Positions 12,438 through 28,128 of a DNA stretch of 32,000 bases are shown here, in pieces (the first letter of the stretch is position 1; the number at the start of each line of letters is the position of its first letter). Position numbers and translations under genes: made by a program. This DNA comes from Candidatus Nitrosopelagicus brevis (GTDB lineage: Archaea > Thermoproteota > Nitrososphaeria > Nitrososphaerales > Nitrosopumilaceae), in contig NZ_CP007026.1 in the NCBI RefSeq assembly GCF_000812185.1, positions 525,222 to 557,221 of the forward strand. Reading direction: 5' to 3'. The notes below the pieces were generated by a model. The model searched no databases. It was not told where the DNA came from and saw nothing but the letters and a program-made list of their open reading frames with translations.

Positions 12438-12468
12438 TTTTGGCACCAGTTTATGAAATTAGCATTAG

Positions 12469-12476
12469 TTTTATAC
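12469..12476 (+). promoter_or_regulatory. TATA box TTTTATAC, 28 nt upstream of ATG 12497
   Basis: The same octamer occurs at 25558 and on the minus strand at 25461-25454. Confidence 0.55.
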
Positions 12477-12496
12477 TCCGTTAAGGGCATAAGATT

Positions 12497-13438
12497 ATGA
12501 AAAAATTAGGAATTGGATTACTTGCACTTTCAATATCTCTTGCAATGACTGGTATCGGATTTGATAATGCATTTGCTGAAGAAATTAAGATTGAAAATGG
12601 TCGCGGTTCATCCCAGCCGGGATGCGAGGTAACAAACCTATGTTTTGTACCTGCAATTGCAACTGCAAACGTTGGTGATAAAATAATATTTTTGAATGGA
12701 GATGATGCTCCACATACTTCAACTAGCGGTAATCCTACAAGTGGACCTGATGGTATCTGGGATAGTGGATTACAGCAACCTGGAGTAGATTTTGTATTTA
12801 TGGCAACTACCCCTGGAACTTTTGATTATTTCTGTATGGTCCATCCGTGGATGGCTGGACAACTGGTAATCTTAGCTGCTGATTCAGAAACCTCTAATGA
12901 CATAATTTCTAACTATGGAACCTCAGTTGATCAAACTGAATCAATGATTTATGGTGATACCACACCTGAAATATCTAAAAAAGATCCAGGAGCTGTGAAT
13001 GAAGTATTTGCAAACATCGTTACAAGTGATGCTTCAAAAGGCTCTCCTCTAACAATTGAAGTCGAATTTATGGAATCAGATGGATTTGTTATCAATCATG
13101 TAAATTATGACATAACTGTATCTCAAAATGGTGAAATAATACTTGCTGACAATGGTGCACACCGTCACTTGTTCAAATATCCTGTACACACTACTGATGA
13201 ATTAGAATTTGATCCTAAAGAACATCCTGTTGACATTGATGTAACATTTCAAGGAATTGGTCACTTTGTTGGTTCATTAACTGAAGAATCAATACTAGGA
13301 GTTTACGGTCCTATTGGAACGACATCTACTTTTCAAGTAGTTCCTGAGTTTGGTGTAATTGTATCACTAGTACTAGTAATTTCAATTACTGCAGTTATTG
13401 GATTCTCTGCTAAAACAAGATTAATACAAAAATTCTAG
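12497..13438 (+). CDS. Secreted blue-copper (cupredoxin/plastocyanin-like) protein with an extra domain and a PEFG-CTERM anchor
   Basis: Signal peptide MKKLGIGLLALSISLAMTG. Type-1 Cu ligand pattern: PHTSTSG ... YFCMVHPWMAGQLVI (H...C-x2-H-x2-M). The C-terminus VPEFGVIVSLVLVISITAVIGFSAKTR matches the PEFG-CTERM sorting signal as I recall it. Confidence 0.85.
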   Translation: MKKLGIGLLALSISLAMTGIGFDNAFAEEIKIENGRGSSQPGCEVTNLCFVPAIATANVGDKIIFLNGDDAPHTSTSGNPTSGPDGIWDSGLQQPGVDFVFMATTPGTFDYFCMVHPWMAGQLVILAADSETSNDIISNYGTSVDQTESMIYGDTTPEISKKDPGAVNEVFANIVTSDASKGSPLTIEVEFMESDGFVINHVNYDITVSQNGEIILADNGAHRHLFKYPVHTTDELEFDPKEHPVDIDVTFQGIGHFVGSLTEESILGVYGPIGTTSTFQVVPEFGVIVSLVLVISITAVIGFSAKTRLIQKF

Positions 13439-15608: not shown

Positions 15609-15632
15609 TTAATTGCTAATTACTCAATAAGC

Positions 15633-15640
15633 CTTATATT
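15633..15640 (+). promoter_or_regulatory. TATA-like box CTTATATT, about 31 nt upstream of ATG 15665
   Basis: Position and sequence. Confidence 0.5.
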
Positions 15641-15664
15641 TGAAATTGGGATAAATTTCTTATC

Positions 15665-16343: not shown

Positions 16344-17705
16344 CTAACGTTTCAATTTTGGATTAACAATTGCATCTAATGCATTTCCAATAAACACAAA
16401 CGCTAATCCTGTAATTGCTATTAAAATTCCTGGAGGAACAATCCACCACCAAAATCCTTGTGCTGCTGCTCCGTAAGTATTTGCATCATGTAAAATCTGT
16501 CCCCATGTTGGAAATGAAGGGTCTCCTAATCCGAGAAAACTTAATCCTGCTTCTGTAGTGATTGCTGCTGGCACTGAGATAGCAATACTTGCAAATGCGT
16601 ATGGTAGTAATTGAGGTAGAATATGCCTAAAAATTATTTTTGAATCTTTTTGACCCATTATTTTTGCCGCTTCGATATATTGTCTAGTTTTGATCTGTAG
16701 TGACATACTTCGTGAAACTTTTGCAATACCAACCCAGCTAAAAATCATAAGAAAACCTATCATCAAAAATATACTATTACTAATGGTGACTGCTAGAATT
16801 ATTAAAAATGGCAATGCAGGTAGTGCATAAATGACATCATTGAATCGCATCATCACCTCGTCTGTTTTCTTACCTCGGTATCCAGAATAAACCCCATAAA
16901 CTAATCCTACTACAACTGAGCCAATTGACACTGAAATTCCAATGAATAATGCTAAAGGTGTGCCCCAAAGTAACCCAATTGCTAAATCTCTACGAAGTTC
17001 ATCTGTACCCATCAGTCCATAAGCTTTACCTCCTAGGATCAATTTTGAATCTAACACCTCGATTGGTTCTTTTGTCCCATACGTATCAATAACAAAAATG
17101 TAATTTCCTTTTTGTATTTCATTTTTATTTAATTCTGAAAATATTATTTCTGTTGTACCTGATAAAAAGTCAAATTGAAAATCATTTTTGTACATGTTAA
17201 GATTTTTTTTAATCATGCTGTCTGTTGAAAAATATCTCTGATTGTGAATTGTATCTGAATTTGAATACGGTAATGACGTAGATAATAATTCTAAGATAAT
17301 TCCATCTGGACGAATGACTTTGATTTGAACTAAGTGTGAATCTGAATATTTCGTCTTCATTTCTATGATGAAATCACTTGGAAAATCATCATAGTCAAAG
17401 AATACTCCAAATTGTTGCGAAGTAAGAAAAATTCCGTTATCTTGTGATTGAAAAATCTCCGGCTCTAAGATTTTATGTTCTGGAATCTTATCTGTGGATA
17501 AAAAATTCACCCAGCTTGGCACTGATGTTTTTGGGTATAAAATCCATTTTTCAGGATTGTTCCATTCTTGAAATGTTGATGCTGGAATCACTGAGATGGT
17601 TATTATTGAAACTAAAATTAATCCTGATAGAATAAAAATTCCTGTTAAGCCCAATTTGCTTTTTAGAAATTCCGCTTTAATTTCTTGTGTCGAAACGCTA
17701 CTCAA
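16344..17705 (-). CDS. ABC peptide/nickel-type transporter permease (DppC/OppC-like) with a long N-terminal extracytoplasmic insert
   Basis: C-terminal half has the binding-protein-dependent permease pattern (AAKIMGQKDSKIIFRHILPQLLP ... NALDAIVNPKLK). 4-nt overlap with the upstream permease gene. Confidence 0.85.
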   Translation of the reverse strand: MSSVSTQEIKAEFLKSKLGLTGIFILSGLILVSIITISVIPASTFQEWNNPEKWILYPKTSVPSWVNFLSTDKIPEHKILEPEIFQSQDNGIFLTSQQFGVFFDYDDFPSDFIIEMKTKYSDSHLVQIKVIRPDGIILELLSTSLPYSNSDTIHNQRYFSTDSMIKKNLNMYKNDFQFDFLSGTTEIIFSELNKNEIQKGNYIFVIDTYGTKEPIEVLDSKLILGGKAYGLMGTDELRRDLAIGLLWGTPLALFIGISVSIGSVVVGLVYGVYSGYRGKKTDEVMMRFNDVIYALPALPFLIILAVTISNSIFLMIGFLMIFSWVGIAKVSRSMSLQIKTRQYIEAAKIMGQKDSKIIFRHILPQLLPYAFASIAISVPAAITTEAGLSFLGLGDPSFPTWGQILHDANTYGAAAQGFWWWIVPPGILIAITGLAFVFIGNALDAIVNPKLKR

Positions 17706-18848: not shown

Positions 18849-20165
18849 ATGCAAGAATTTGCAAATCCTCCTTCACTAAGAAATGCAATATTTGACCTAC
18901 TTTCTTCTGTCGAACTTGCAACTGATGAAAATGTAAAATTATTAGATTACACAATACAGTTATTCAAAAGCAATGGATTGTTCAGTGATTATTATGGATA
19001 CCATAATGTTGATCATGAACTTGAAGTCACTTACGTCACTTTGGTTGCTGGAAAACATTCTCTTGAAGAAAATTATATCTCTAAAACTGATTTGAATTAT
19101 CTTTTTGCATCTGCACTTTTGCATGATTTTGATCCTGATAAATCGATAGACAAACCTCATGAAAAAAATGTCATACAGTTTATCTCCAAAGATGCAACCA
19201 TACAAAAACTCCTTGCTGATGCAAACCTGGATCAAAATCTAATCTGTGCAATAATATCTAGAACCGTCTATCCTTGGGCTGGAGATATAATCACTAACAC
19301 AGAAAAATTAATCCAAAATTACTTTTCAAACTCTGAAATAAAAGATGATAATGAAACACAAAAACACTTTAGAGAACTTGGACATTTTCTATCCATTTCT
19401 GACCGAATTGGTGGTTATTCTCTAGGTGATTTCCAAAAGGCAATGGAGATGGCAAAGATGAATGCACATTCATCAAGTTGGCATCCTGCCTTTATTGTCA
19501 GGCGTTCGGTTGTCTTTTTTGAAGATATGCTAAATAATGAACCTGATATGTGTCAACGAGTTTTAAACGGACTTCCAAAACATATGAGGAAAAATTTCTT
19601 AGATAACATCGTTGGATTTATGAAACTTCGTCAAGAAGAAATTCAAATTTACAATCAATTTGTTTATGATGGTCTGCCATTAGTTCCATGCATACAGAAA
19701 AGTACACTTTCTGACGATGTTTTGGATGAACTTTTATCAATTTATCGGGAATTACCAAAACCACTGCAATTTACCCGTGATGATTTCATTGAATCAATAC
19801 GTGATCCTGAAACAATTCTTAACATGCTTCGTATTGGAGATTCTAACGGACAAATTATTGGATTTGCAAAAGGTGGTCCATTAGAAAAATATAATTTTGA
19901 TCTAGAGTTTGAAGATCGAAATCGCGGGAAAAATAATACCGTCTTTCTTGAGCCTGTCGCAATAAAAAACGGCTATTGGGGTTTTCATGGAGGCAGAGAG
20001 TTAAGACAGTTATTCATGATGCAGGTGCAATCAAAAGGTTACAAATTCATGACTAGTTTTGCAATGCGTGATGTGATTGATGAAAGAAAAGAAAATGACA
20101 AAAATGTTGTTTTTGTGAAAAAGTTTAATCCTGAACGATGGGATTATTTCAGAGTAACTCTATAG
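18849..20165 (+). CDS. HD-domain phosphohydrolase-like N-terminal region fused to a GNAT-like C-terminal domain
   Basis: YHNVDHELEV ... ASALLHDFDPDK gives the H...HD...D metal motif. The C-terminal ~150 aa show a GNAT-like strand/helix pattern: IIGFAKGG ... VFLEPVAIKNGYWGFHGGRELRQLFMMQVQSKGYKFM. Confidence 0.6.
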   Translation: MQEFANPPSLRNAIFDLLSSVELATDENVKLLDYTIQLFKSNGLFSDYYGYHNVDHELEVTYVTLVAGKHSLEENYISKTDLNYLFASALLHDFDPDKSIDKPHEKNVIQFISKDATIQKLLADANLDQNLICAIISRTVYPWAGDIITNTEKLIQNYFSNSEIKDDNETQKHFRELGHFLSISDRIGGYSLGDFQKAMEMAKMNAHSSSWHPAFIVRRSVVFFEDMLNNEPDMCQRVLNGLPKHMRKNFLDNIVGFMKLRQEEIQIYNQFVYDGLPLVPCIQKSTLSDDVLDELLSIYRELPKPLQFTRDDFIESIRDPETILNMLRIGDSNGQIIGFAKGGPLEKYNFDLEFEDRNRGKNNTVFLEPVAIKNGYWGFHGGRELRQLFMMQVQSKGYKFMTSFAMRDVIDERKENDKNVVFVKKFNPERWDYFRVTL

Positions 20166-20172
20166 ATGTCTA

Positions 20173-20400
20173 GTGAACGAACTAGAGACATTAATTCAAA
20201 ATGGTGTTAAAAATCTTGAAGATGGTAATTTTGAAGATGCTTTGAGCTTTTTTGAACAAGCATTACTTCTAAAACCTGACGATCCTGATTTATGGAATAA
20301 CAAGGGTATTGCATTAAGGAGTCTAGGTAGATACGATGAGGCATCTTACTGTTATAACAAATCTCTTGAATTGGACCCTAGGGATCGTGCTTCTTCTTAA
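20173..20400 (+). CDS. Small TPR-repeat protein (75 aa)
   Basis: GTG start 7 nt after the previous stop. Two TPR-like units (GNFEDALSFFEQALLLKPDDPDLWNNKGIALRSLGRYDEASYCYNKSLELDP). Confidence 0.65.
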   Translation: MNELETLIQNGVKNLEDGNFEDALSFFEQALLLKPDDPDLWNNKGIALRSLGRYDEASYCYNKSLELDPRDRASS

Positions 20401-20630
20401 ATCTGATTTTGTTTTTTCTTACCATAAATTATCATGATAAATCCAATTCCAATTACAACTAGAGATAATTTTTCTGCAGTTATGTCTGATGATATAAAAT
20501 ATCTTGCAACAAATTCCGGTCCCCAGATTACTAAATTTTGTAATGGTATTATTGCCCCGCTAATAAAAAACAATATGCCAAATGCCCCAAAAACATTTTT
20601 TGGAAAAAAAGAAGAAGATTTTTCAGTCAT
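20397..20630 (-). CDS. 77-aa two-TM membrane protein
   Basis: Helices VFGAFGILFFISGAIIPL and LSLVVIGIGFIMIIY with a KKKQ tail. Starts 6 nt after the stop of the 199-aa gene, so it is probably co-transcribed. Preferred over the overlapping plus-strand ORF 20434..20640, which has no structure. Confidence 0.55.
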   Translation of the reverse strand: MTEKSSSFFPKNVFGAFGILFFISGAIIPLQNLVIWGPEFVARYFISSDITAEKLSLVVIGIGFIMIIYGKKKQNQI

Positions 20631-20636
20631 TCTACA

Positions 20637-21236
20637 CTAATATCCGCCTTTTACAAACTCATATTCTTTTTTGTTAAAGTCGAATTGCGTTACGAGTACT
20701 TCGCCCATTGCATCAACTGCTGCCTGAACCACATCTGGTTGAGTTGAGAAGAATCCTCTGAATTTTCCAATTCCAAACTCTTCTGCTATTAAACCGATTG
20801 GTCCATCTGGACCACGTGTTACAACTGCCCATACTGAAGCAAGCGGTGTTCCAACACAGCTGATAACCACACAACTATCTGGCATCTCTTGAGCCAAGTG
20901 TGGATTATTGAAGTTTCCAATTACCCACGTTCTTGGGAGTTTCTTCATCAATTTCAGATATCTGTCCTTGACAAACTCGTACCTTTTGTCAGTCTCAAAT
21001 GACGCTAGTAATGGGGATGTGTGTTTTGATGCATAGTTCTCAATCATTATGCTTAGTGCAAAAAGATCTGAACGGTCTGCTTTGAAGTTTAGATATCCAC
21101 CGTCTTGAAAGTCCTGAAAGTTCCAGTTCACAAAAATTTCGTCGCCCTGTTCGGCAATTTCTTTTTTCTCTGGGAACTTTTCAAAGACTGTATCAATCAA
21201 ACTGTCGTTCGTTAAACCCATGTTTAACGTTAACAT
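20637..21236 (-). CDS. Unknown-function protein, possibly a DICT-like sensory domain
   Basis: 199 aa, or 194 aa if ATG 21221 is used; that start has TTAAATAT 28 nt upstream. The C-terminal pattern SVWAVVTRGPDGPIGLIAEEFGIGKFRGFFSTQPDVVQAAVDAM resembles my recollection of DICT (PF10069) C-termini. Sits immediately downstream of the B12-binding regulator gene. Confidence 0.75.
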   Translation of the reverse strand: MLTLNMGLTNDSLIDTVFEKFPEKKEIAEQGDEIFVNWNFQDFQDGGYLNFKADRSDLFALSIMIENYASKHTSPLLASFETDKRYEFVKDRYLKLMKKLPRTWVIGNFNNPHLAQEMPDSCVVISCVGTPLASVWAVVTRGPDGPIGLIAEEFGIGKFRGFFSTQPDVVQAAVDAMGEVLVTQFDFNKKEYEFVKGGY

Positions 21237-21251
21237 ATAGAATATTTAAGC

Positions 21252-21280
21252 TAGTGGAAACTAGGTATTATAGTGGTAAT
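21252..21280. promoter_or_regulatory. Two TAGTGG motifs (TAGTGGAAA at 21252, TAGTGGTAAT at 21271), 19 bp apart, upstream of the 199-aa gene
   Basis: Same motif family as the clusters at 22148-22243 and 25464-25554. Confidence 0.45.
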
Positions 21281-22131
21281 TATTTCTTTTTTATAATTCG
21301 AGGAATTTGTTCCAGGGCATGAGCATCAGTGATGAGTTTTCCATCAAATTTAAAATTCGTTTTCTCCGTAAATGCCAGACCTCCTATGAAAATTGGAAGT
21401 TTCTTATATGCTTCATGAATTTTTTTAACCATTCTTTGACCAGATCTGATATTGTCCTCTAACGTTATTGATACAATTAGAGCATCTGGTTTTGCAGTTT
21501 TTATAAATTCAATTAGTGATTCTGCAGGGGTTGATGGTGATAGATTAAATGTTGTAAATCCCTTTGAGACTAAAAATGAATCTAGTACGTTACAACCTAA
21601 ATTGTGATCCTCTCCAACTGGAGTGGTTAGTACAATTTTTCCTTTATCCTTCTTTGATTTTCTATTTTCATCTGCAATTACCTTAACAAGACTATGAGCA
21701 ATGTTGCTGGCAACGTGTTCTGTTGCAATTGATAGCTTACCTTCTGACCACAAATATCCAATTTCGGCCATAACTGGTGTCATAATTCTTTCATAGAACT
21801 GGTCTAGTGTATTGCTTGAGACAAATGCTGTGTAAATCTCCATTGTATCTTTTAGACTTCCTTCTGTAAGTGATGAAAATAATTTGGTTCTTAATTGCTC
21901 AATTAATTTTTCACGTTTTTCTCTGTCCTTTGGTGTATTTTGTAGTAAAAATGAGTTAATTTTTGCATCCTCTCTAAATTCTGCAGGGATATCATCTCTG
22001 GTCACAGATGTAGATTCACCTAGATATTTGATGGTTTCCTGTCTGGATGTCTTTCTTTCTTTATCCCACGTACTTTTTACTAAATATAGATAATCGACTC
22101 CTTTTACCTTCTTTTTTCGAAGATATACCAT
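21280..22131 (-). CDS. CarH-like adenosylcobalamin-binding (photoreceptor-type) regulator with a non-MerR N-terminal domain
   Basis: W128-x9-E138-H139 (YLWSEGKLSIATEHVAS). E174-D-H176-N-L-G179 (ExHxxG). G179-x41-S221-I-T223. T223-x26-G250-G251. The N-terminal 45 aa are basic and beta-rich (VYLRKKKVKGVDYLYLVKSTWDKERKTSRQETIKYLGE), with no HTH recognised. Confidence 0.8.
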   Translation of the reverse strand: MVYLRKKKVKGVDYLYLVKSTWDKERKTSRQETIKYLGESTSVTRDDIPAEFREDAKINSFLLQNTPKDREKREKLIEQLRTKLFSSLTEGSLKDTMEIYTAFVSSNTLDQFYERIMTPVMAEIGYLWSEGKLSIATEHVASNIAHSLVKVIADENRKSKKDKGKIVLTTPVGEDHNLGCNVLDSFLVSKGFTTFNLSPSTPAESLIEFIKTAKPDALIVSITLEDNIRSGQRMVKKIHEAYKKLPIFIGGLAFTEKTNFKFDGKLITDAHALEQIPRIIKKK

Positions 22132-22147
22132 TAGCCGTATTACTGAA

Positions 22148-22243
22148 TAGTGCCTAATAAGTATATCTAGTGCTAACTAGTACATTTCGTGCCTAAAAAC
22201 ACAAAAAATTCTGAATATTATGGATTTTAAAGATTACCACTAT
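22148..22243. promoter_or_regulatory. Cluster of four TAGTG[C/G](C)TAA motifs in the divergent intergenic region
   Basis: TAGTGCCTAA at 22148-22157, TAGTGCTAA at 22168-22176 and TCGTGCCTAA at 22187-22196 are direct repeats spaced 20 and 19 bp. ATAGTGGTAA lies on the minus strand at 22243-22234. The first two flank the AT-rich TATA candidate at 22155-22168. Confidence 0.5.
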
Positions 22244-22282
22244 GACGAAACTTAAAAGACACACTGTTACCGTTTGTACTAG

Positions 22283-22555
22283 TTGGCTCGCGAAAAAAGA
22301 ACAAGAATTCAATTGTATTTTGATATAATTTCAGCAATAATCCAAGAAGAAGATATCTCGCCAACACGAATTCAGTTCAAATGTAATACCTCCTATGATA
22401 AATTAATGAAATATCTGGAAGAAATGCAAAAACGTGAAATCATAGCAAGAAATGGCTCAATCGGTGTTACCGATAAAGGAAAAAAATTTCATACGGATTA
22501 TTCAAAAATTAACGATCTAATATCTGAAATTAGTAAAACGATTACGGAAGAGTAA
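22283..22555 (+). CDS. Small winged-helix DNA-binding protein (HTH_45-like)
   Basis: 90 aa. RIQLYFDIISAI...SPTRIQFKCNTSYDKLMKYLEEMQKREIIARNG...VTDKGKKF matches the small archaeal wHTH pattern. TTG 22283 is the first codon after an in-frame TAG, and the first in-frame ATG (codon 42) would remove the N-terminal RIQLYFDIISAI segment and truncate the domain. Confidence 0.65.
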   Translation: MAREKRTRIQLYFDIISAIIQEEDISPTRIQFKCNTSYDKLMKYLEEMQKREIIARNGSIGVTDKGKKFHTDYSKINDLISEISKTITEE

Positions 22556-23090
22556 ATAATTCAGTACCTTTCTCTTTTGTCTGAAATATTATAGCTTTGT
22601 GAGATTCTAGTAATTGATTCAAAAATCTATCTCTTAGTTCTTCGTTAATCTGTTTGACCTCAAACGAACAAACAAAGTTACCATTAATTTTTTCAAAACC
22701 ATCATCAACACATTGTTCAATTTCTGCCATTCTATCTGTCTTTTCTTCAGAATCAAAATCAAAGTAGTGTGTTGAAACAACTCTAATTTTAGCTTCTTCA
22801 GGTAATCCTTCCACTTTGTCTAAAATCATATCTGAATAATCTTCAAATTTTTCAGGAATCTCTACTATGTGTAAAAGCTCATTACTCTCTCCATCTTCAA
22901 TTCCAAATTGCTTCATTTCATCTAGGATTTTTTGACGATTTTGTGTTGTATAGAAGCAGTGTTGACCCTTGTCTAGTCCTTTTTTAATAAATCCATATTC
23001 TGTTTGCTTTTTTTCTTCATTTCCATCGTGAAAAAGCACTACATGTGTGCGCTCTAAACTTTCAAGAAAGTCCTCAGATTGCGAGCTCAT
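22542..23090 (-). CDS. MEDS-like (KaiC/RecA-derived sensory) domain protein
   Basis: 182 aa. THVVLFHDGNEEKKQTEYGFIKKGLDKGQHCFYTT resembles the MEDS N-terminal signature (H.v.fY...ee......fi..Gl..ge.c.y). Its 3' end overlaps the wHTH gene convergently by 14 nt. Confidence 0.6.
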   Translation of the reverse strand: MSSQSEDFLESLERTHVVLFHDGNEEKKQTEYGFIKKGLDKGQHCFYTTQNRQKILDEMKQFGIEDGESNELLHIVEIPEKFEDYSDMILDKVEGLPEEAKIRVVSTHYFDFDSEEKTDRMAEIEQCVDDGFEKINGNFVCSFEVKQINEELRDRFLNQLLESHKAIIFQTKEKGTELFTLP

Positions 23091-23111
23091 CTTAATTGAT
23101 GGTTTTTAGAG

Positions 23112-23119
23112 TATATAGA
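23112..23119 (-). promoter_or_regulatory. TATA box (CTATATAC on minus strand), 29 nt upstream of ATG 23090
   Basis: Position and sequence. Confidence 0.5.
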
Positions 23120-23124
23120 GAACC

Positions 23125-23138
23125 CTCACCTAGGTGAG
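23125..23138. promoter_or_regulatory. Perfect 14-bp palindrome CTCACCTAGGTGAG next to the MEDS-gene TATA box
   Basis: Self-complementary as read. Located at the BRE-proximal side of the TATA box. AGGTGAGT recurs at 25475-25482. Confidence 0.45.
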
Positions 23139-23196
23139 TTTCTTGGTTCCTACTGGTTATATGCAAAATTTGCTTTTCTTAGTTTAGGTAACAAAT

Positions 23197-23358
23197 ATGT
23201 TAAAAGATCCAAAAGTCGATTGTGTTTTCTGCAACAAATCGGTGTTCGACCACTCAAATTTTGAAAGCAGAGAATGCCTCTCAAAACATCTCCAGGTCCA
23301 AAAAATCCTTCAAAGCGCCATGGGTGAAACTGAATCTGGCCAAAACTTCTTTTCTTAA
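23197..23358 (+). CDS. Candidate 53-aa zinc-finger-like micro-protein
   Basis: Below the ORF-track cut-off. My translation is MLKDPKVDCVFCNKSVFDHSNFESRECLSKHLQVQKILQSAMGETESGQNFFS (C9-x2-C12-x14-C27-x3-H31). GTTATATG lies about 40 nt upstream and T-runs follow the stop. Confidence 0.4.
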   Translation: MLKDPKVDCVFCNKSVFDHSNFESRECLSKHLQVQKILQSAMGETESGQNFFS

Positions 23359-23393
23359 TTTTTCTATTTTTTTAAAAATAAAAATTTGATTAT
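23359..23393. terminator. T-rich convergent terminator region
   Basis: tttttctattttttt on the plus strand and two T5 runs on the minus strand, between two convergent stops. Archaeal termination typically uses oligo-T. Confidence 0.4.
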
Positions 23394-24863
23394 TTATGAG
23401 TAATCTGTATTGTAAACTGGTCTAGCACCGCTTGGTACTTCTGCACCAGCAGATTCCTTGACTGATTCTCCTCTTGCCTGGTAAACTCTGACTTTGTGAA
23501 ATACATTGTGGGATGAAAATATTGCCAATCCGGCAATTCCAGCTCCTATGAAATTCCTTAATGTCACATCGATACTTGGTTCTGCACCTATTACTGACAT
23601 TTGGAATACAACGTAAAAATTGTCAAATAACCAAAATGCCAAAGTTACCCATGATAGCAATCCTCCAATAAGATAGCCTAGCCTTGCTTTTTGTCTTACA
23701 AATAAAATTGCAAAAATAATTGCAACATACCAAATGAATGATCCAAATAACCATGATATTTCCCATACATCTGTTCTATCATCCATCCAGTAGTATGTGG
23801 AACCAATTATTGCCATGGCACAAAGTGAAATCAAAAGTAATTTTTGATTAACCTTGTAAGATGTTTTTTCTTCAGGTGTTTTTTCAATTGGTTTGAAAGC
23901 TACTTGTTCTTCTCTTGCCTCTTTGATTGCTTCAGTCATATGTTTGAGATTTACTGGAACAAATTCTTCTACTGATTTGTCTTTTACGTATGAGTCGTGA
24001 ACTAAACTGTCTACTAGTGGCCTTGCAAGTGATGCCTTTACCGGAGTTACCAAATCAATCCAGTATGATGATAATCTTGGCGTTAAAAATGGAATTTGTA
24101 TGATATTCAAATTTCTATTAATTATTGATGAATACAGTCTCATCATTTGTTCGTATGTCATTTTATCAGGTCCACCAATCTCAAATATTTTTCCGGCAGT
24201 TGATGGATTTTTCATAGCACCCACTAGATAATCTACAACATTTTCGACTGCAATTGGCTGCGTTGTAGATTTTACCCATCTTGGGCAAACCATTAGTGGT
24301 AATCTTTCAACAAGATATCGGAGCATTGCGTATGAACCACCCTCTGCACCCACAATTACTGATGCTCTCAATTCTGTAACTGGAATGGTTCCTGATGCTA
24401 AAATTTTGCCAACTTCGTGCCTACTTCTCATGTGTTTTGATAATTCTAAACTTTCGTTTACCAATCCTCCAAGATAGATTATTCTTTTTACTCCTGCGTT
24501 TTCAGCAGCTTTTAGAAAATTTTGTGCTTGAACTTTTTCTCTATCTGCAAATTGTTCCCATTCTTTTTTGGAACCTTCCATAGAGTGTAGAAGGTAAAAT
24601 GCAGTTTCTACTCCCTTGAATGCATTAGATAATGTGTCCAACTCTAACGCATCTGCTGCTACAAATTTTACATTATCTGAATTTTGATGTAGTGTTCTTG
24701 ACATCGCGGTAACTTTGTACCCTGTTTTGGATAATCTCTCTGTTAGTTTTTTTCCAATGAATCCTGTGGCGCCTGTAACTAGAATTGAATAATCATTGAT
24801 TTTGGCACTTTCTTTTAATGCTGCCATTTTCTCTAAATTACTTGAACTTGCTTTCTGACTCAT
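23394..24863 (-). CDS. NmrA/atypical-SDR-like NAD(P)-binding domain fused to a C-terminal four-TM membrane domain
   Basis: ILVTGATGFIGKKL (Rossmann GxxGxxG) within a ~300-aa epimerase/NmrA-like region. Then four hydrophobic helices follow (LLLISLCAMAIIGSTYYW, WLFGSFIWYVAIIFAILFV, LIGGLLSWVTLAFWLF, FIGAGIAGLAIFSS). Confidence 0.85.
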   Translation of the reverse strand: MSQKASSSNLEKMAALKESAKINDYSILVTGATGFIGKKLTERLSKTGYKVTAMSRTLHQNSDNVKFVAADALELDTLSNAFKGVETAFYLLHSMEGSKKEWEQFADREKVQAQNFLKAAENAGVKRIIYLGGLVNESLELSKHMRSRHEVGKILASGTIPVTELRASVIVGAEGGSYAMLRYLVERLPLMVCPRWVKSTTQPIAVENVVDYLVGAMKNPSTAGKIFEIGGPDKMTYEQMMRLYSSIINRNLNIIQIPFLTPRLSSYWIDLVTPVKASLARPLVDSLVHDSYVKDKSVEEFVPVNLKHMTEAIKEAREEQVAFKPIEKTPEEKTSYKVNQKLLLISLCAMAIIGSTYYWMDDRTDVWEISWLFGSFIWYVAIIFAILFVRQKARLGYLIGGLLSWVTLAFWLFDNFYVVFQMSVIGAEPSIDVTLRNFIGAGIAGLAIFSSHNVFHKVRVYQARGESVKESAGAEVPSGARPVYNTDYS

Positions 24864-24865
24864 TT

Positions 24866-25237
24866 TTACTCCTTGTCTAGTTTACGAAGTTCTTTAAGAT
24901 CTACAATCTCAATATCTTTGCTCAGAGTTACCAGAGATGATAATTTTGGTTTGGCATTTTTACCCATTTTAAGAACTAGTTTATTTTTATGTAATATCTC
25001 AAGTGTCACATTCTCTTTTTTTAGAACTTTTCCTATATGTTTGGCCTCAGTTAATTGTTTCAATAGGCTCATTTTTCCAGGAATTTTTGTAGGAAGGTGC
25101 TTGATGTTTAATCTTCTAATATCTCCTTTTGAGGAAAATTCTATAGCGGTACCATCTCCATCACTGATGGTTAAGTCTCCGCTACGGAGGTAAAGTAAAA
25201 AATTGGCAGGAAGGTCGCTTTTCATTTTCGTATCCAT
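24866..25237 (-). CDS. Hypothetical protein (123 aa)
   Basis: K/E/L-rich, protein-like composition. 2-nt gap to the downstream gene. The overlapping plus-strand ORF 24873..25193 is S/L/F/R-rich, as expected for an antisense frame. Confidence 0.65.
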   Translation of the reverse strand: MDTKMKSDLPANFLLYLRSGDLTISDGDGTAIEFSSKGDIRRLNIKHLPTKIPGKMSLLKQLTEAKHIGKVLKKENVTLEILHKNKLVLKMGKNAKPKLSSLVTLSKDIEIVDLKELRKLDKE

Positions 25238-25243
25238 TCCTGA

Positions 25244-25432
25244 TTAGGTTTTTGTTGTGATAGTCAAGCCACCTGTTAGTACAACTGTTCCTGTTGAAAC
25301 TTTCTTGCCATTGCGGTCAACCATTCCACTAAGTTCTAATTTGTCGAACTTGTATGAAATGGCTGCATGCTTTGCAGTTAGTTTATCAAAAACTTCTGCC
25401 AGGAGACTTGCCCATTCTTGTTCTTCTGTCAT
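25244..25432 (-). CDS. Hypothetical small protein (62 aa)
   Basis: ATG 25432 (MTEEQEWASLL) has TTTTATAC exactly 29 nt upstream. The longer 25474 start would place the TATA box and a TAGTG motif inside the CDS. Confidence 0.55.
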   Translation of the reverse strand: MTEEQEWASLLAEVFDKLTAKHAAISYKFDKLELSGMVDRNGKKVSTGTVVLTGGLTITTKT

Positions 25433-25453
25433 ACAAATCCTAATTACGTCATA

Positions 25454-25461
25454 GTATAAAA
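25454..25461 (-). promoter_or_regulatory. TATA box (TTTTATAC on minus strand), 29 nt upstream of ATG 25432
   Basis: Identical octamer to the opposing promoter at 25558-25565. Confidence 0.55.
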
Positions 25462-25463
25462 CG

Positions 25464-25554
25464 CTAGTGACCAAAGGTGAGTCTAGTGCCTAAATGTTAT
25501 CACCATATTACAAATAGTGGTAAATATTGGCACTAGAAGCACCCTAGTGCATAA
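25464..25554. promoter_or_regulatory. Cluster of five TAGTG-family motifs between two divergent TTTTATAC promoters
   Basis: CTAGTGACCAA at 25464-25474. CTAGTGCCTAA at 25483-25493. ATAGTGGTAAA at 25514-25524. TTGGCACTAG at 25527-25536 (reverse orientation). CTAGTGCATAA at 25544-25554. TCTAGTGCC (25482-25490) and GGCACTAGA (25529-25537) form a perfect 9-bp inverted repeat with a 38-bp spacer. Confidence 0.5.
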
Positions 25555-25557
25555 CTG

Positions 25558-25565
25558 TTTTATAC
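25558..25565 (+). promoter_or_regulatory. TATA box TTTTATAC, 29 nt upstream of ATG 25587
   Basis: Position and sequence. Confidence 0.55.
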
Positions 25566-25586
25566 TATAAATGGAAAATCTGTTTA

Positions 25587-26168
25587 ATGAGCACTACACA
25601 ATCACTTCCAAGTAAGATCGCATTGATGAAAGGTGGAATCGGGGCAGGCCTAATGGGTGGCTTCGCATTATTTTCATCATTCTTTGCAATCGATCAAATG
25701 TTAGATATTCCGGCAGGAACATTCTACAAAACCATCGGTGTTACAATGGGCGTGGATGAAACTTCAGCAATTGCAGTGGGCTTTATAGCTCACATGGGAG
25801 TTGCAGCATTGATTGGGGCCATGTACTTTTTGGCTTCAAACATTTGGAGATTCTTTAGATTGGTAACAGTTCCAAAAGCAATAATCACTGGTGTTTGGAC
25901 TGGGCTAATTGTTTTCACATTAGCATTTTTACCGATTCACATGTTCGTAATGACTCCAATGATGGAGGTAGAATTAATTATTACCGACGTATCAAAATTT
26001 GACTTGGAACAACAAAAGGCATTAGCAACCCTGTTGTATGAAAGCGACAAAATTTACATCAATGCTTTGATTCTCCACATAATCTATGGAGCAATCGCAG
26101 GATTCGTTGGAGGTTGCATAATGCATGAAGACTACAAAGGAGTGAAAAGGATTGGCGGATTCTGGTAA
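25587..26168 (+). CDS. Hypothetical multi-pass membrane protein (193 aa)
   Basis: Four to five hydrophobic helices (GIGAGLMGGFALFSSFFAI, AIAVGFIAHMGVAALIGAMYFL, IITGVWTGLIVFTLAFLPIHMFV, ILHIIYGAIAGFVGGCIM). Confidence 0.75.
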   Translation: MSTTQSLPSKIALMKGGIGAGLMGGFALFSSFFAIDQMLDIPAGTFYKTIGVTMGVDETSAIAVGFIAHMGVAALIGAMYFLASNIWRFFRLVTVPKAIITGVWTGLIVFTLAFLPIHMFVMTPMMEVELIITDVSKFDLEQQKALATLLYESDKIYINALILHIIYGAIAGFVGGCIMHEDYKGVKRIGGFW

Positions 26169-26199
26169 CAACAACGAAAGAGGTCTAAAACTTGAAGGT

Positions 26200-26523
26200 A
26201 TGTACAATACCTTCATGGGTCAAGTTTCACAACTATTCCCAAAGACCGACTCAAATCTATTACTCAATGTGATGGCTTTGGAAAGAAAGTTCCCAGATAT
26301 GAGACCACACGTTCACCTGGAGATAATCTTCAACAAAGGCACAGATGTCGAATTGCCAAAATATGAGATTACTGAAAAGTACCATGTTCAGGCTGCAGTT
26401 CACAGATGGGACAAGAATATTCTCGTTGTCACCGGAATGATGAACGTCGACACTATTGCTGAAATCGCAGATCACAAAACTGTGGAAAAAATATCTGGTA
26501 CAGCAAACGCTGCCTTTTATTAA
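26200..26523 (+). CDS. Hypothetical protein (107 aa from ATG 26200)
   Basis: The ORF-track version starts at TTG 26152, overlapping the upstream gene. The first ATG (26200, MYNTFMGQ) is preceded by purine-rich gaaagaggt...gaaggt. No motif recognised. Confidence 0.6.
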   Translation: MYNTFMGQVSQLFPKTDSNLLLNVMALERKFPDMRPHVHLEIIFNKGTDVELPKYEITEKYHVQAAVHRWDKNILVVTGMMNVDTIAEIADHKTVEKISGTANAAFY

Positions 26524-26589: not shown

Positions 26590-26967
26590 ATGGTTGCAAA
26601 AAATGAGTTTGATCCTCTAATTAAGAAAATTGGTAAACTAAACAAAAAAATCCGTTTTATTGCAATCATCCACAAAAATGGAAAAATACTAAAATCTGAA
26701 ATGAGAGATGAAGTTCCATCTTTACTTAAAACAAAAAATGAAGAAAAGTTCTGCCAAGATGTAACTGCCCGTAGAAAGATGCGAGAAGAGTTTGACAAAT
26801 CTTTAGGTAAGGTCCGATTTGTAAATGTCGAGCGTGAGAATATCTCTCAAATTGTAATGTATGCAAAAACAAAGTCTTTGTTTATCACTGTTGAGCCTGA
26901 AATATCCATTACTGATAAAACCAAGATCATCTCTCAAATCAAAAAACTCACTGTTAATTTAAAATGA
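26590..26967 (+). CDS. Hypothetical 125-aa protein (Roadblock/LC7-like pattern, low confidence)
   Basis: Alternating alpha/beta pattern (IRFIAIIHKNGKILKSEM ... ISQIVMYAKTKSLFITVEP). 4-nt ATGA overlap with the downstream PIN-like gene. Confidence 0.6.
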   Translation: MVAKNEFDPLIKKIGKLNKKIRFIAIIHKNGKILKSEMRDEVPSLLKTKNEEKFCQDVTARRKMREEFDKSLGKVRFVNVERENISQIVMYAKTKSLFITVEPEISITDKTKIISQIKKLTVNLK

Positions 26968-27236
26968 AAATTTTAGTTGATGAGATGGATGATGGAATGG
27001 ATGAACGTCTAATCCAGCTAGGATATGATGCATACAGCGTTAAAAAACTCCGAACTGAAGGCAAAAAACTCCATACTGATTATTCAGTCATCAATTATGC
27101 GAAGGAAAATGATATGATTCTCATAACTCGTGATACTGAAAGTGGTCAGGCGTGCGAGGAAAATGGTTTACCTTGTATTTTATTAGACAATAATGAAATC
27201 TTCAAAATTGTAACTGAGAAACTAAAAAATTTCTAA
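26964..27236 (+). CDS. Small PIN-like (DUF5615 / Mut7-C-type) putative nuclease
   Basis: MKILVDEMDDGMDERLIQLGYDAYSV...DYSVINYAKENDMILITRDTE matches the pattern (F/I)LVDE.L......L..LGyD......D.eil..A..e.RillTrD. Confidence 0.6.
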   Translation: MKILVDEMDDGMDERLIQLGYDAYSVKKLRTEGKKLHTDYSVINYAKENDMILITRDTESGQACEENGLPCILLDNNEIFKIVTEKLKNF

Positions 27237-28068: not shown

Positions 28069-28089
28069 GTGAGATCTTTTACGTAGTTC

Positions 28090-28097
28090 ATTATATT
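28090..28097 (-). promoter_or_regulatory. TATA box (AATATAAT on minus strand), 29 nt upstream of ATG 28068
   Basis: Position and sequence. Confidence 0.5.
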
Positions 28098-28128
28098 TTT
28101 AACATATGTTCTGTAACTAAATTCCATA

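Follow-up and report, generated by a model that had tools for sequence, protein, structure and literature searches.

A Candidate CarH-Like Cobalamin-Dependent Regulator and Its Putative Direct-Repeat Operators in Ammonia-Oxidising Archaea

The Regulator Gene and Its Domains

The window, i.e., the whole 32-kb stretch of Candidatus Nitrosopelagicus brevis DNA that was analysed, carries on its minus strand (21280..22131) a gene for a 283-aa protein in which a basic beta domain is followed by a linker helix and a CarH-type B12-binding four-helix bundle with a Rossmann domain. The same protein is found in assembly GCA_012928565.1 (contig SHMM01000001.1), and public pipelines name members of this family 'methanogenic corrinoid protein MtbC1' or 'cobalamin-dependent protein'. 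All other open reading frames listed in an earlier note on this DNA are likewise present in the window.

The B12-binding module occupies codons 78-258 (21358..21900, minus strand), contains GYLW(128), E138-H139 and E174-D-H176-N-L-G, and matches the Pfam families B12-binding_2 (E = 3.5e-9) and B12-binding (E = 7e-11), while the best NCBIfam match of the protein is CarH (2e-17). In a Foldseek comparison with the PDB, the best 50 matches of this module are all light-sensing B12 domains, led by CtMerR (8jbs), a photocobilin (8j2w) and TtCarH (5c8d) at E ~1e-12 and TM ~0.75. The CarH signature is read as G125-x-x-W128, E138-H139 and E174-x-H176-x-x-G, of which W128, E138-H139 and H176 align to W131, E141/H142 and H177 of TtCarH; GxxW, EH and ExH are invariant across 28 family members (22-59% identity to the window protein), as is the W-x9-EH spacing, which is that of CarH, and methionine synthase aligned to the same region has neither the W nor the EH. 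These are three elements of a four-element signature that includes GxxxP and has been experimentally validated (PMC11796333). The fourth element reads SPSTP in the 283-aa protein, SxxxP being common to many family members, and Ser129 stands where TtCarH has His132, its ligand in the light state. Taken together, the Pfam, NCBIfam, Foldseek and residue-level evidence supports the earlier assignment of a CarH-signature B12 protein.

The N-terminal domain, encoded by codons 1-40 (22012..22131, minus strand), is a three-stranded antiparallel beta domain with 11 K/R in 38 residues; its strands span residues 2-9, 12-23 and 28-39 in an AF2 model with pLDDT of ~85-90. No other part of the family is as well conserved: mean pairwise identity is 54% as against 28-37% for the B12 module. 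The domain occupies the place of the MerR helix-turn-helix that serves CarH as DNA-binding domain. No match to it was returned from Pfam, the PDB or BFVD, and Foldseek linked it to no DNA-binding fold described so far, its best E-values being 0.45 (PDB) and 0.09 (BFVD); in other archaea, the same domain is joined to HNH nuclease and AbiEii modules. On account of its position and strongly basic character, it is presumed to be the DNA-binding domain and may contact DNA directly.

Repeated Motif and Putative Operators

The intergenic DNA around this gene contains a motif, TTAG(G)CACTA, in same-strand repeats about 19 bp apart that lie next to or flank TATA boxes. TAGTGSNTAA occurs four times in the window against 0.25 expected, and the strict form TTA[GCT]?[GC]CACTA occurs nine times in the 32 kb, with 7/9 copies in three intergenic regions totalling ~306 bp and the other two as single copies within coding regions at 16821 and 24294. 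A weight matrix trained on distant loci alone, with the window left out, yields 22 matches at a score of at least 9 (10.2 +/- 3.1 expected), and ten of them fall in the same three regions if a match overlapping the start codon at 25587 is included. Distances between same-strand sites, taken from unique contexts in 80+ loci, form a sharp peak at 19 bp (43 cases, next to 10 cases at 18 bp and 12 at 20 bp, as against ~2 per bin elsewhere), and the sites stand directly beside or on either side of TATA-like elements 15-30 nt upstream of start codons. The clustering in three promoter regions, the phasing of ~19-20 bp and the placement beside TATA boxes noted earlier are all borne out, and a survey of motif density elsewhere leaves no credible site, upon reading, in the other ten intergenic regions of the window. 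The motif is supported as a genuine, conserved cis-element. As to an alternative kind of B12 switch, an Rfam search of the window found no riboswitch and no other family.

At the regulator's own promoter, the putative operator (22148..22197, minus strand) flanks a TATA-like element; in gene orientation, TTTAGGCACG (22189-22197) and TTAGCACTA (22168-22176) are followed by the TATA-like GATATACTTA (22158-22167) and then by TTAGGCACTA (22148-22157). A single site, TTACCACTA (22234..22242, plus strand), lies directly upstream of the TATA-like CTTAAAAGA (22250-22258) that precedes a 90-aa HTH_45/Sso10a-like winged-helix (wHTH) gene (22283..22555, plus strand; HTH_45 match 1e-12, as the earlier reading of a small wHTH anticipated). 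The TAGTG core of this site stands at the same position in loci L007 and L011; L010 and L013-L021 yielded no relative of the gene, which occurs elsewhere as two alleles or orientations. With this one site only, the wHTH gene is a possible minor target and not the universal partner of the motif.

Downstream of the regulator gene, a second putative operator (21252..21279, minus strand) consists of TTACCACTA (21271-21279), 10 nt, TTTCCACTA (21252-21260) and the TATA-like TTAAATATTC; in seven orthologous loci its sites are invariant and its spacer divergent. It precedes a gene for a 199-aa divergent DICT-like protein (20637..21236, minus strand), which probably starts at Met6 (21221) to give 194 aa, matching the public record. 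The DICT assignment holds in part: the window copy matches weakly (E = 0.24), but no Pfam family other than DICT recurs, and DICT is found in 8/15 relatives with most of the model covered and a best E of 8.7e-4, all these scores lying under the Pfam cut-off. A gene for a 77-aa protein with two hydrophobic segments (20397..20630, minus strand) follows 6 nt downstream, probably in the same operon, and still adjoins the regulator in L013, a locus that has no DICT-like gene.

The largest putative operator cluster (25465..25554) lies in a divergent promoter and comprises four minus-strand sites (25465-25474, 25484-25493, 25515-25524 and 25545-25554) and one plus-strand site (25525-25536) between flanking TATA boxes TTTTATACTAT at 25451-25461 (minus) and 25558-25572 (plus); in L002, L004, L007, L011 and L012, the spacers vary but none of the five sites is lost. 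The leftward operon, on the minus strand, begins with a 76-aa ORF (25244..25474; likely start, the ATG at 25432), a gene preceded by an operator pair in 11 loci, and continues with a 123-aa protein (24866..25237) and a 489-aa protein (23394..24863), whose NmrA-like NAD(P)-binding domain and C-terminal domain of four hydrophobic segments agree with the fusion described earlier. A free-standing copy of this 4-TM domain adjoins the regulator in L013-L016 and L018. The rightward operon, on the plus strand, begins with a 193-aa multi-pass membrane protein (25587..26168), whose type carries a strong upstream motif in 22/33 loci, and probably includes a 123-aa gene (26152..26523) that overlaps the end of the membrane-protein gene. 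The two divergent operons, earlier listed as of unknown function, are motif-bearing, and their families are the regulator's most frequent neighbours (the 193-aa membrane protein in 33/87 loci and the NmrA/TM fusion in 30/87).

The motif is absent from region 23091-23393, where the promoters of the MEDS and zinc-finger genes are located, and neither gene is among the predicted targets; the 182-aa protein is indeed MEDS-like (3e-8, passing the Pfam cut-off), and its promoter has a conserved palindrome of its own in place of the motif. An extra, weaker putative operator (12438..12477, plus strand) is made up of TTTTGGCACCAG, 7 nt, AATTAGCATTAG and the TATA TTTTATACT, 20 nt upstream of a start codon; its sites span 12438-12468, outside the region 20397-26523 originally noted, and the pair is kept in eight Nitrosopelagicus loci and more degenerate in L014 and L015. 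The gene behind it encodes a 313-aa secreted, membrane-anchored cupredoxin-like protein (12497..13438, plus strand; PF00127 E = 0.0017 for the L002 orthologue) and is a candidate regulon member.

Conservation Across Ammonia-Oxidising Archaea

In 15/15 Nitrosopelagicus loci read, the regulator gene is preceded by a motif pair with one site on each side of the TATA box; these loci include proteins only 60-65% identical, other contexts and nearly solitary genes. Among homologues from soil and sediment metagenomes, the pair is present in 19/46 upstream regions as compared with 0.5% of background windows. The motif pair goes with the regulator gene in every genomic context compared, and these contexts range from Nitrosopelagicus of the open ocean to Nitrososphaeraceae-like contigs from soil; contigs of soil and estuarine sediment commonly carry the family. 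The proposed link between regulator and motif is much strengthened by this pairing across lineages, binding itself being inferred. Motif pairs also precede neighbour genes in many lineages, but the neighbour genes differ between them, and none were found before the housekeeping genes that flank regulator loci. The set of six genes listed earlier is not kept together as a unit: the make-up of the island varies from locus to locus, and the regulator is nearly solitary in L014-L016. Neighbours in 87 loci that speak for a CarH-like explanation include phytoene-desaturase-like amine oxidases (18/87), UvdE-like and Fpg/Nei-like repair genes (four loci) and a DUF523+DUF1722 (YbgA-like) protein. A TFB paralogue adjoins the regulator in 11 loci, and a wHTH gene does so in some soil loci as well as in the window. 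Speaking against a light response, the targets in the window are not of the classical light-gene kind, with no photolyase and no carotenoid pathway among them.

Proposed Mechanism and Alternative Readings

On the most likely interpretation, a CarH-like dark repressor controls its own gene together with a regulon that extends across the ammonia oxidisers. The 283-aa protein would be an archaeal one-component transcription factor operating like bacterial CarH, with a C-terminal module that binds adenosylcobalamin (AdoCbl), a cofactor that ammonia-oxidising archaea are reported to produce. In the dark, the bound cofactor would keep the protein oligomeric, and each N-terminal basic beta domain would contact one TTAG(G)CACTA site within direct repeats ~19 bp apart, either across the BRE/TATA region or in the stretch from the TATA box to the start site; because of these positions, occupancy would block TBP/TFB or RNA polymerase, and the protein would repress both its own gene and the operons next to it. 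In the light, the Co-C bond would break, the oligomer dissociate and the promoters open. The predicted targets are the regulator, the DICT-like/2-TM operon, the 76aa-123aa-NmrA/4TM operon and the 193aa-123aa membrane operon, together with, probably, the wHTH gene and the cupredoxin-like gene at 12497. That the 283-aa protein is an autoregulating binder of the motif is probable; whether light acting on AdoCbl is the signal is evenly balanced; and the one-component AdoCbl dark-repressor explanation as a whole, in which repression, oligomer control and light are all inferred, is slightly favoured. The protein and its motif are the first concrete candidate that we found for a light-controlled gene switch in ammonia-oxidising archaea.

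The same regulator and operator could instead respond to how much cobalamin is present or in which chemical form (AdoCbl versus hydroxo-, nitro- or nitrosyl-cobalamin), as a sensor of B12 status or of oxidative/nitrosative stress. We consider this unlikely, although several observations are in keeping with it: soil and sediment contigs carry many family members, the His132 equivalent is absent and GxxxP is altered, and the targets are of redox type (NmrA-like, flavin oxidases, NADH-dehydrogenase-like, cupredoxin-like and PNPOx-like). Moreover, relatives of the DICT-like gene bear KM3 fosmid names, which we take to denote deep-sea DNA from ~3000 m, where sunlight would not be a possible cue. 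On the other hand, the W-x9-EH cap, an adenosyl-accommodating mark of the photoreceptor class, is invariant; no genes for cobalamin synthesis, transport or B12-dependent enzymes are found among the targets and neighbours; and AdoCbl in such modules is photolabile in the examples tested (PMC11796333).

A role as activator, in which the protein, dark or illuminated, recruits TFB/TBP from just upstream of the TATA box, also fits the many promoters with both sites upstream of that box, among them most of the non-autoregulatory ones, where the sites are immediately upstream. Archaeal activators do bind in this position. The proximal site, however, abuts the TATA box at the BRE position and leaves TFB no room, the regulator's own promoter has one site between the TATA box and the start codon, and the sites of the divergent promoter fill the entire gap between two TATA boxes; this geometry is typical of repressors and makes activation improbable.

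It is more doubtful still that another protein binds the motif, whether a TFB paralogue that prefers a BRE of its own, a regulator encoded elsewhere or the wHTH next to it, with the B12 protein as a co-regulated partner only (an AerR-like antirepressor or a corrinoid carrier). The unrecognised fold of the beta domain, the adjacency of wHTH and TFB-paralogue genes and the proximal site at the BRE position would agree with such a binder. Against it, the motif persists in L010 and L013-L021, where no relative of the wHTH was found, the B12 gene is the sole constant neighbour of the motif, and the BRE cannot account for a second copy 19 bp away or a copy downstream of the TATA box; in addition, the basic N-terminal domain is conserved most, over the same evolutionary span as the operator, and no methyltransferase partners lie nearby. 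Lastly, an origin of the motif clusters by chance, or as something that promoters in AT-rich intergenic DNA have in general, for which the 93 loose-pattern matches in the window and the two single coding copies might speak, can be dismissed as extremely improbable, since the enrichment, the ten empty intergenic regions, the sharp spacing peak and site-specific conservation across genera already contradict it.

Comparison with Known Systems

The closest known systems are the AdoCbl-dependent photoreceptor repressors CarH/LitR of Thermus thermophilus, Myxococcus xanthus and Bacillus megaterium, which are the best sequence and fold match. They are likewise one-component proteins with an N-terminal DNA-binding domain (presumed in the 283-aa protein) before the four-helix bundle and Rossmann B12 module, conserve W-x9-EH and ExHxxG, and act at same-strand direct-repeat operators that overlap the core promoter, with autoregulation (here predicted). 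In contrast to CarH, the 283-aa protein has the three-stranded beta domain in place of the MerR helix-turn-helix and Ser in place of His132, its promoter is archaeal TATA/BRE and not sigma-70, its sites are 10 bp long and 19 bp apart whereas CarH operators are contiguous 11-bp repeats, and no clear carotenoid/photolyase operon is seen among the window targets.

CtMerR and the photocobilins (PDB 8jbs, 8j2w) are the top structural matches, differing in that the GxxxP of their signature is SxxxP in the window protein. They exemplify the reuse of the CarH-type module with other partner domains (MerR, biliverdin-binding or GGDEF), and the bis-His light state of TtCarH is dispensable (PMC11796333); archaea are absent from the main text of that paper. 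The DICT sensory domain (PF10069) also differs here, the 199-aa protein standing alone without a GGDEF or kinase output domain.

AerR/PpaA, to which the 283-aa protein shows a weak match (7te2), similarly link cobalamin and light to transcription through a B12-binding_2 plus B12-binding module. They are not known to have a DNA-binding domain and work via CrtJ/PpsR, whereas in the 283-aa protein a further, conserved domain is present at the N-terminus and an operator accompanies the gene. The corrinoid proteins (MtbC, MtaC, MtgC) and methionine synthase share the same two Pfam domains at similar E-values, but W-x9-EH is missing from the cap helix of methionine synthase, the one protein of this group whose alignment was read; the regulator differs further in its additional N-terminal domain and operator and in having no methyltransferase genes nearby. 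Finally, archaeal repressors that cover the start site or the BRE/TATA region, such as MDR1, Phr, LrpA and TrmB, resemble the present system in the position of their sites relative to the TATA box and start codon; these are helix-turn-helix/winged-helix proteins with usually palindromic sites, whereas the window combines direct-repeat sites with a beta domain.

The CarH-Type Module and the Basic Beta Domain

The ammonia-oxidising archaea may, at slightly less than an even chance, possess a B12-photoreceptor transcription factor family of their own, in which a CarH light module is joined to a new beta DNA-binding domain that reads 19-bp-spaced TTAGCACTA repeats at TATA-box promoters and controls a conserved, lineage-variable membrane and redox gene set. 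Every functional statement made here on the regulator and the motif rests on sequence and comparison, and it is the comparative evidence that decides the case.

By both sequence and fold matches, the C-terminal two-thirds of the 283-aa regulator (21280–22131, minus strand) is a CarH-type cobalamin module. The B12 module that the earlier note had assigned to this protein was matched in Pfam as PF02607 (B12-binding_2, the four-helix bundle; 3.5e-9) and PF02310 (the Rossmann B12-binding domain; 7e-11), and the top NCBIfam model is CarH (2e-17). With the AF2 model (pLDDT 79) as the Foldseek query, the best 50 PDB matches are all light-sensing B12 domains (E ~1e-12, target TM ~0.75), including CtMerR 8jbs, photocobilin 8j2w and TtCarH 5c8d. 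Alignment with TtCarH pairs W128 with W131, E138-H139 with E141-H142 and H176 with H177; methionine synthase has neither the Trp nor the EH pair. The W-x9-EH element over the upper (adenosyl) face is present as W128, E138 and H139, the lower axial His of (D/E)xHxxG is found in E174-D-H176-N-L-G179, and none of the residues G125, W128, E138, H139, E174 and H176 varies among 28 family members of only 22–59% identity to the window protein. Three of the four elements of an experimentally validated light-response signature (GxxW, EH, GxxH and GxxxP; PMC11796333) are present; the GxxxP element is not found in the window protein, which has S198-P-S-T-P202, with P202 invariant in the family and the first position of the element occupied by S, A or G. 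An equivalent of TtCarH H132, the residue of the bis-His light state, was not found in the alignment, where Ser129 stands here and S, A, E and others in relatives. A His at this position is not known to be universal in the CarH-type proteins characterised so far.

No MerR-type winged helix-turn-helix was matched in the 283-aa protein by Pfam or NCBIfam. Residues 2–39 are predicted by AF2 to form a three-stranded antiparallel sheet (pLDDT 85–90), which is very basic (11 K/R in 38 residues); no other part of the protein is as well conserved, the mean pairwise identity being 54% here against 28–37% for the B12 module. Significant matches to this domain are absent from Pfam and, by fold search, from PDB and BFVD; the sole lenient-Pfam match, MrcB_N (E 0.015), was not accepted, and homologues sought by word index from the first 80 aa were fragments of the same family only. 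An exhaustive search placed the domain in 122 clusters (50% identity), most of them sharing the ~280–310 aa architecture of the regulator and one including a protein named as from a Nitrososphaeraceae MAG. HNH nuclease or AbiEii nucleotidyltransferase modules replace the B12 module in some of these proteins, which is consistent with a nucleic-acid-binding role for the N-terminal domain. The beta domain also occurs in the N-terminal-domain proteins P0255, P0257, P0265, P0236, P0243, P0266, P0269 and P0272, and its fusion types comprise HNH endonuclease, AbiEii nucleotidyltransferase (in a Diapherotrites MAG) and an unknown C-terminal domain (proteins of ~172–185 aa overall); such varied fusions mark it as a mobile archaeal module.

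Motif Copies at TATA-Box Promoters

In gene orientation the motif reads TTAG(G)CACTA, and its reported clustering at the TATA boxes of three promoter regions is borne out by direct repeats that abut or flank those boxes. Two copies surround a TATA-like element in the regulator's own promoter (22148–22197), with a third 21 bp further upstream; two copies, 19 bp apart, abut TTAAATATT in the promoter of the DICT-like gene (21252–21279); and five copies lie between two identical TATA boxes in the 112-bp divergent region of the 76-aa and 193-aa genes (25465–25554). The wHTH gene has a single copy (22234–22242), upstream of its TATA-like element. An extra, weaker pair (12438–12477), TTTTGGCACCAG then AATTAGCATTAG, abuts TTTTATACT 20 nt before the start of a 313-aa gene (12438–13438 region) that encodes a secreted cupredoxin-like protein and lies 9 kb beyond the span reported earlier; this pair is kept in other Nitrosopelagicus loci and makes the gene a further candidate target.

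The strict pattern has nine copies in 32 kb, seven of them within ~306 bp of intergenic DNA, and a weight matrix derived solely from distant loci recovers the same window regions. Ten other intergenic regions proved to contain no credible copy. The earlier note had placed the MEDS and zinc-finger genes in the candidate regulon; this did not hold, since no copy lies in 23091–23393, and they are therefore not predicted targets. Loose-pattern matches in intergenic 15609–15664 and 28069–28128 proved on reading to have no GCAC core and were rejected, and the strict copies at 16821 and 24294, each single and inside a coding region, were taken as chance.

A separate element, the perfect 14-bp palindrome CTCACCTAGGTGAG, is situated at 23125–23138, just 5' of the MEDS gene's TATA-like element, and is kept as CTCACC(TA/AT)GGTGAG in eight other loci (including the Nitrosopelagicus loci L002 at 8953, L007 at 3060 and L012 at 8959); a half-site, GGTGAGT(C), conserved as well, lies between two B12-type sites of the divergent promoter (25476–25483). 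The palindrome is a putative operator for a second regulator, a dimeric one, possibly the adjacent wHTH protein. The wHTH gene (22283–22555; L001–L012) occurs as two alleles: one, ~90% identical, has the window's arrangement and diverges from the regulator, and a second, ~70% identical, lies upstream and points the same way.

Conservation across Loci

Relatives of the 283-aa protein with 94–98% identity come from Nitrosopelagicus single-cell and metagenome genomes, and an identical protein is encoded on contig SHMM01000001.1 of GCA_012928565.1. The window belongs to the chromosome of a Ca. Nitrosopelagicus, a marine ammonia oxidiser. Among the 21 Nitrosopelagicus loci recovered, the whole of the 20397–26523 stretch is a variable island between the DUF6659/DUF5615 genes (26590–27236) and the TPR/438-aa genes (18849–20400); its gene content differs among close genomes, and the position of the regulator is constant in the closer ones (L002–L016). 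Some genomes hold the full gene set of the window, L010 is without the zinc-finger, wHTH, 193-aa and MEDS genes, L013 retains the regulator and the 2-TM gene (in the window at 20397–20630, minus strand) alone, and L014–L016 have only the regulator and a small 4-TM gene; in L017–L021 the regulator is 60–65% identical and stands in different genomic contexts. Of the co-occurrence in relatives that the earlier note wished to see checked, the part concerning the motif stood, with gTTAGCACTAg, a TATA box and then TTAGGCA(C/T)TA in the regulator promoter of all 15 loci read, whereas the gene set proved variable. In orthologous promoters the sites are kept and the spacers drift.

The paired motif and TATA box also stand ahead of other neighbour genes in L017–L021: a Zn-ribbon gene with a flavin amine-oxidase (phytoene-desaturase-like) gene behind it, a gene for a secreted protein with one for a 2OG-Fe(II) oxygenase behind it, and a gene for another secreted protein. 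By BLAST, the window's 313-aa protein and the SRPBCC protein next to it are not homologues of the secreted and SRPBCC proteins that are linked to the motif in L017.

A metagenome scan, made with a 9-member subset alignment (the 28-member alignment being too diverse), found at least 372 relatives; 80 loci were kept, mainly from soil and estuarine sediment. These loci carry no taxonomy, and the label "soil Nitrososphaeraceae-like" reflects one named cluster member and the sample types in contig names. The same motif words recur upstream of the metagenome relatives, for example TTAGCACCAG-N9-TTTACCACTAA-TTCAATATAA, and 19 of 46 upstream regions contain a motif pair, compared with 0.5% of 120-bp background windows, where a good many of the pairs are evidently further operators. 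Counted over unique contexts, the distance between same-strand copies has a peak at 19 bp (n = 43), with 18 bp (n = 10) and 20 bp (n = 12) on either side and a background of ~2 per bin.

Candidate Targets and Neighbouring Genes

The genes found 3' of motif pairs are those of the regulator (53 loci), the DICT-like protein (13), the 76-aa protein (11) and the cupredoxin-like protein (8). A census of 87 dereplicated loci, based on mechanically called ORFs, gives the 193-aa-type membrane protein (33/87) and NmrA/TM fusions (30/87) as the commonest neighbours; the two divergent operons singled out in the window are thus represented by the very families that most often accompany the regulator. Further neighbours are amine oxidases (18), SRPBCC proteins (17 + 9), PNPOx-like proteins (14) and TFB paralogues (11), with UvdE-like and Fpg/Nei-like repair genes near the regulator in 4 of the 87 loci. 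Strong motifs occur upstream of the neighbour families and were not found upstream of housekeeping flanks. Light-protection genes (carotenoid synthesis, photolyase) are absent from the window; beyond it, the loci hold phytoene-desaturase-like amine oxidases (18/87), UvdE-like and Fpg/Nei-like proteins and a DUF523+DUF1722 protein.

A small protein with a Zn ribbon (..C-x-W-C..C-P-C-C-K..LRTK..) recurs as a partner, encoded directly upstream of the regulator in the metagenome loci L069, L079 and L097 and before the amine oxidase in L017–L019; its gene either shares a transcript with the regulator or opens an operon that bears the motif. In 11 metagenome loci, a gene for a TFB (TFIIB-like) paralogue is found no more than 5 kb from the regulator (for example at 5407–6309 in L070 and 8994–9896 in L077).

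In the window, all previously listed ORFs are present between housekeeping flanks (triosephosphate isomerase, family-B DNA polymerase, M1 aminopeptidase, ABC permeases, PurP and TatC), and their domain calls were mostly upheld. The MEDS-like call for the 182-aa protein is confirmed by PF14417 (34.1 bits against a gathering score of 29.8, over 160/161 model positions), and the 90-aa wHTH by HTH_45 PF14947 (48.1 bits, gathering score 25.5), the Sso10a family of NCBIfam reaching 41.5 bits against a cut-off of 60; the 489-aa protein is indeed NmrA-like with four hydrophobic segments. The 199-aa protein itself matches DICT PF10069 weakly (E 0.24; 11.8 bits, gathering score 23.8). DICT was matched in 8 of 15 of its relatives (best E 8.7e-4) and is the one family that recurs among them; 0 of 64 homologues carry a precomputed match. 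Relatives of this protein bear names from KM3 fosmids, deep-sea material from ~3000 m.

Scanning the window for Rfam families and for tRNAs gave no match, and the former result implies that no cobalamin riboswitch is present there. The DICT-like gene (20637–21236) probably starts at Met6 (21221), the public record having 194 aa, and the 76-aa gene (25244–25474) probably at the ATG at 25432, the mechanical ORF start being probably too far upstream in both cases; each start would then fall ~20–30 nt past its own TATA box. TATA boxes, start sites and leaderless transcription were all assigned by reading the sequence. An 839-aa ORF (6612–9131) has no Pfam match and contains long charged repeats of the EAKAQADAEAKAKAE type; this ORF accounts for the strong purine skew and raised G+C at 7–9 kb.

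Proposed Mechanism and Alternative Readings

The 283-aa protein is probably the autoregulating binder of the motif, because the B12 gene is the motif's sole constant companion, the basic N-terminal domain is the best-conserved part of the protein, and the operator is equally long conserved. It would repress by promoter occlusion, as suggested by the geometry of a site at the BRE position, a site between TATA box and start codon, and sites filling the divergent promoter. That the cofactor is AdoCbl and the trigger light, as in CarH, where photolysis of the bound AdoCbl alters oligomeric state and DNA binding, appears about evenly balanced. The invariant adenosyl-cap residues speak for it; confidence is limited by the missing His132, by window targets outside the classical light genes, by the frequency of the family in soil and sediment, and by the KM3 names that relatives of one target carry. 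In the main rival, regulator and operator are kept and the signal is cobalamin state or stress, not light. Activation in place of repression is a lesser rival, which would have to accommodate copies lying where the geometry suggests occlusion. A different DNA-binding factor at the motif, likewise a lesser rival, would have to match the constancy with which the B12 gene accompanies it. The wHTH protein was rejected in this role, no wHTH relative having been found in L010 and L013–L021 though the motif is retained, and a bare BRE for a TFB paralogue would leave unexplained the second copy 19 bp off and the copies downstream of the TATA box.

Significance

Ammonia-oxidising archaea account for much of ocean and soil nitrification. 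Light is reported to inhibit them (Merbt et al. 2012, cited in PMC11334935), they have been implicated as major cobalamin producers (PMC4303638), and a full-text literature search turned up no light sensor and no light-responsive regulator described for them. At this locus the protein and the operator are defined and the predicted target operons are few, so that the light question becomes directly testable in cultured strains. If the proposed reading is true, it would be the first light-sensing gene-regulation pathway described for Thaumarchaeota, could underlie the coping of nitrifiers with photoinhibition or their recovery from it, and would make the beta domain a new DNA-binding fold. It would also carry B12-based photoreception over to archaeal TATA/TFB promoters, add a new small DNA-binding domain, and place the g193-like (193-aa-type) membrane protein, NmrA-4TM fusion and DICT-like protein families in a physiological context. 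CarH already serves optogenetics, and the module could be of similar use.

Relation to Known Systems

Public names for the family are "methanogenic corrinoid protein MtbC1" and "cobalamin-dependent protein"; the former is not supported by NCBIfam scores and the latter is uninformative. Against the methyltransferase corrinoid proteins (MtbC/MtaC) the regulator scores 33–56 bits, below cut-offs of 215–420, and no methyltransferase genes are found among its neighbours, so that this identity was rejected. The name given automatically to two JGI entries is "MerR family ... light-induced transcriptional regulator", and the CarH-type similarity had thus already surfaced in automatic annotation. A full-text literature search found no published description of a CarH- or LitR-type regulator in Thaumarchaeota, and the signature-mining study (PMC11796333) leaves archaea unmentioned in its main text.

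With CarH and LitR the 283-aa protein shares the four-helix bundle and Rossmann B12 module, W-x9-EH and the lower axial His, together with an operator style of same-strand tandem repeats at its own and adjacent promoters (22148–22197, 21252–21279 and 25465–25554). The modal spacing is 19 bp here, whereas the CarH operator consists of 11-bp repeats. The regulator would work like CarH/LitR and is not a strict member of that group, because the defining MerR domain is absent and the promoter machinery is archaeal. The sensor module is already known; what is new is the putative DNA-binding domain, the operator architecture and the domain of life.
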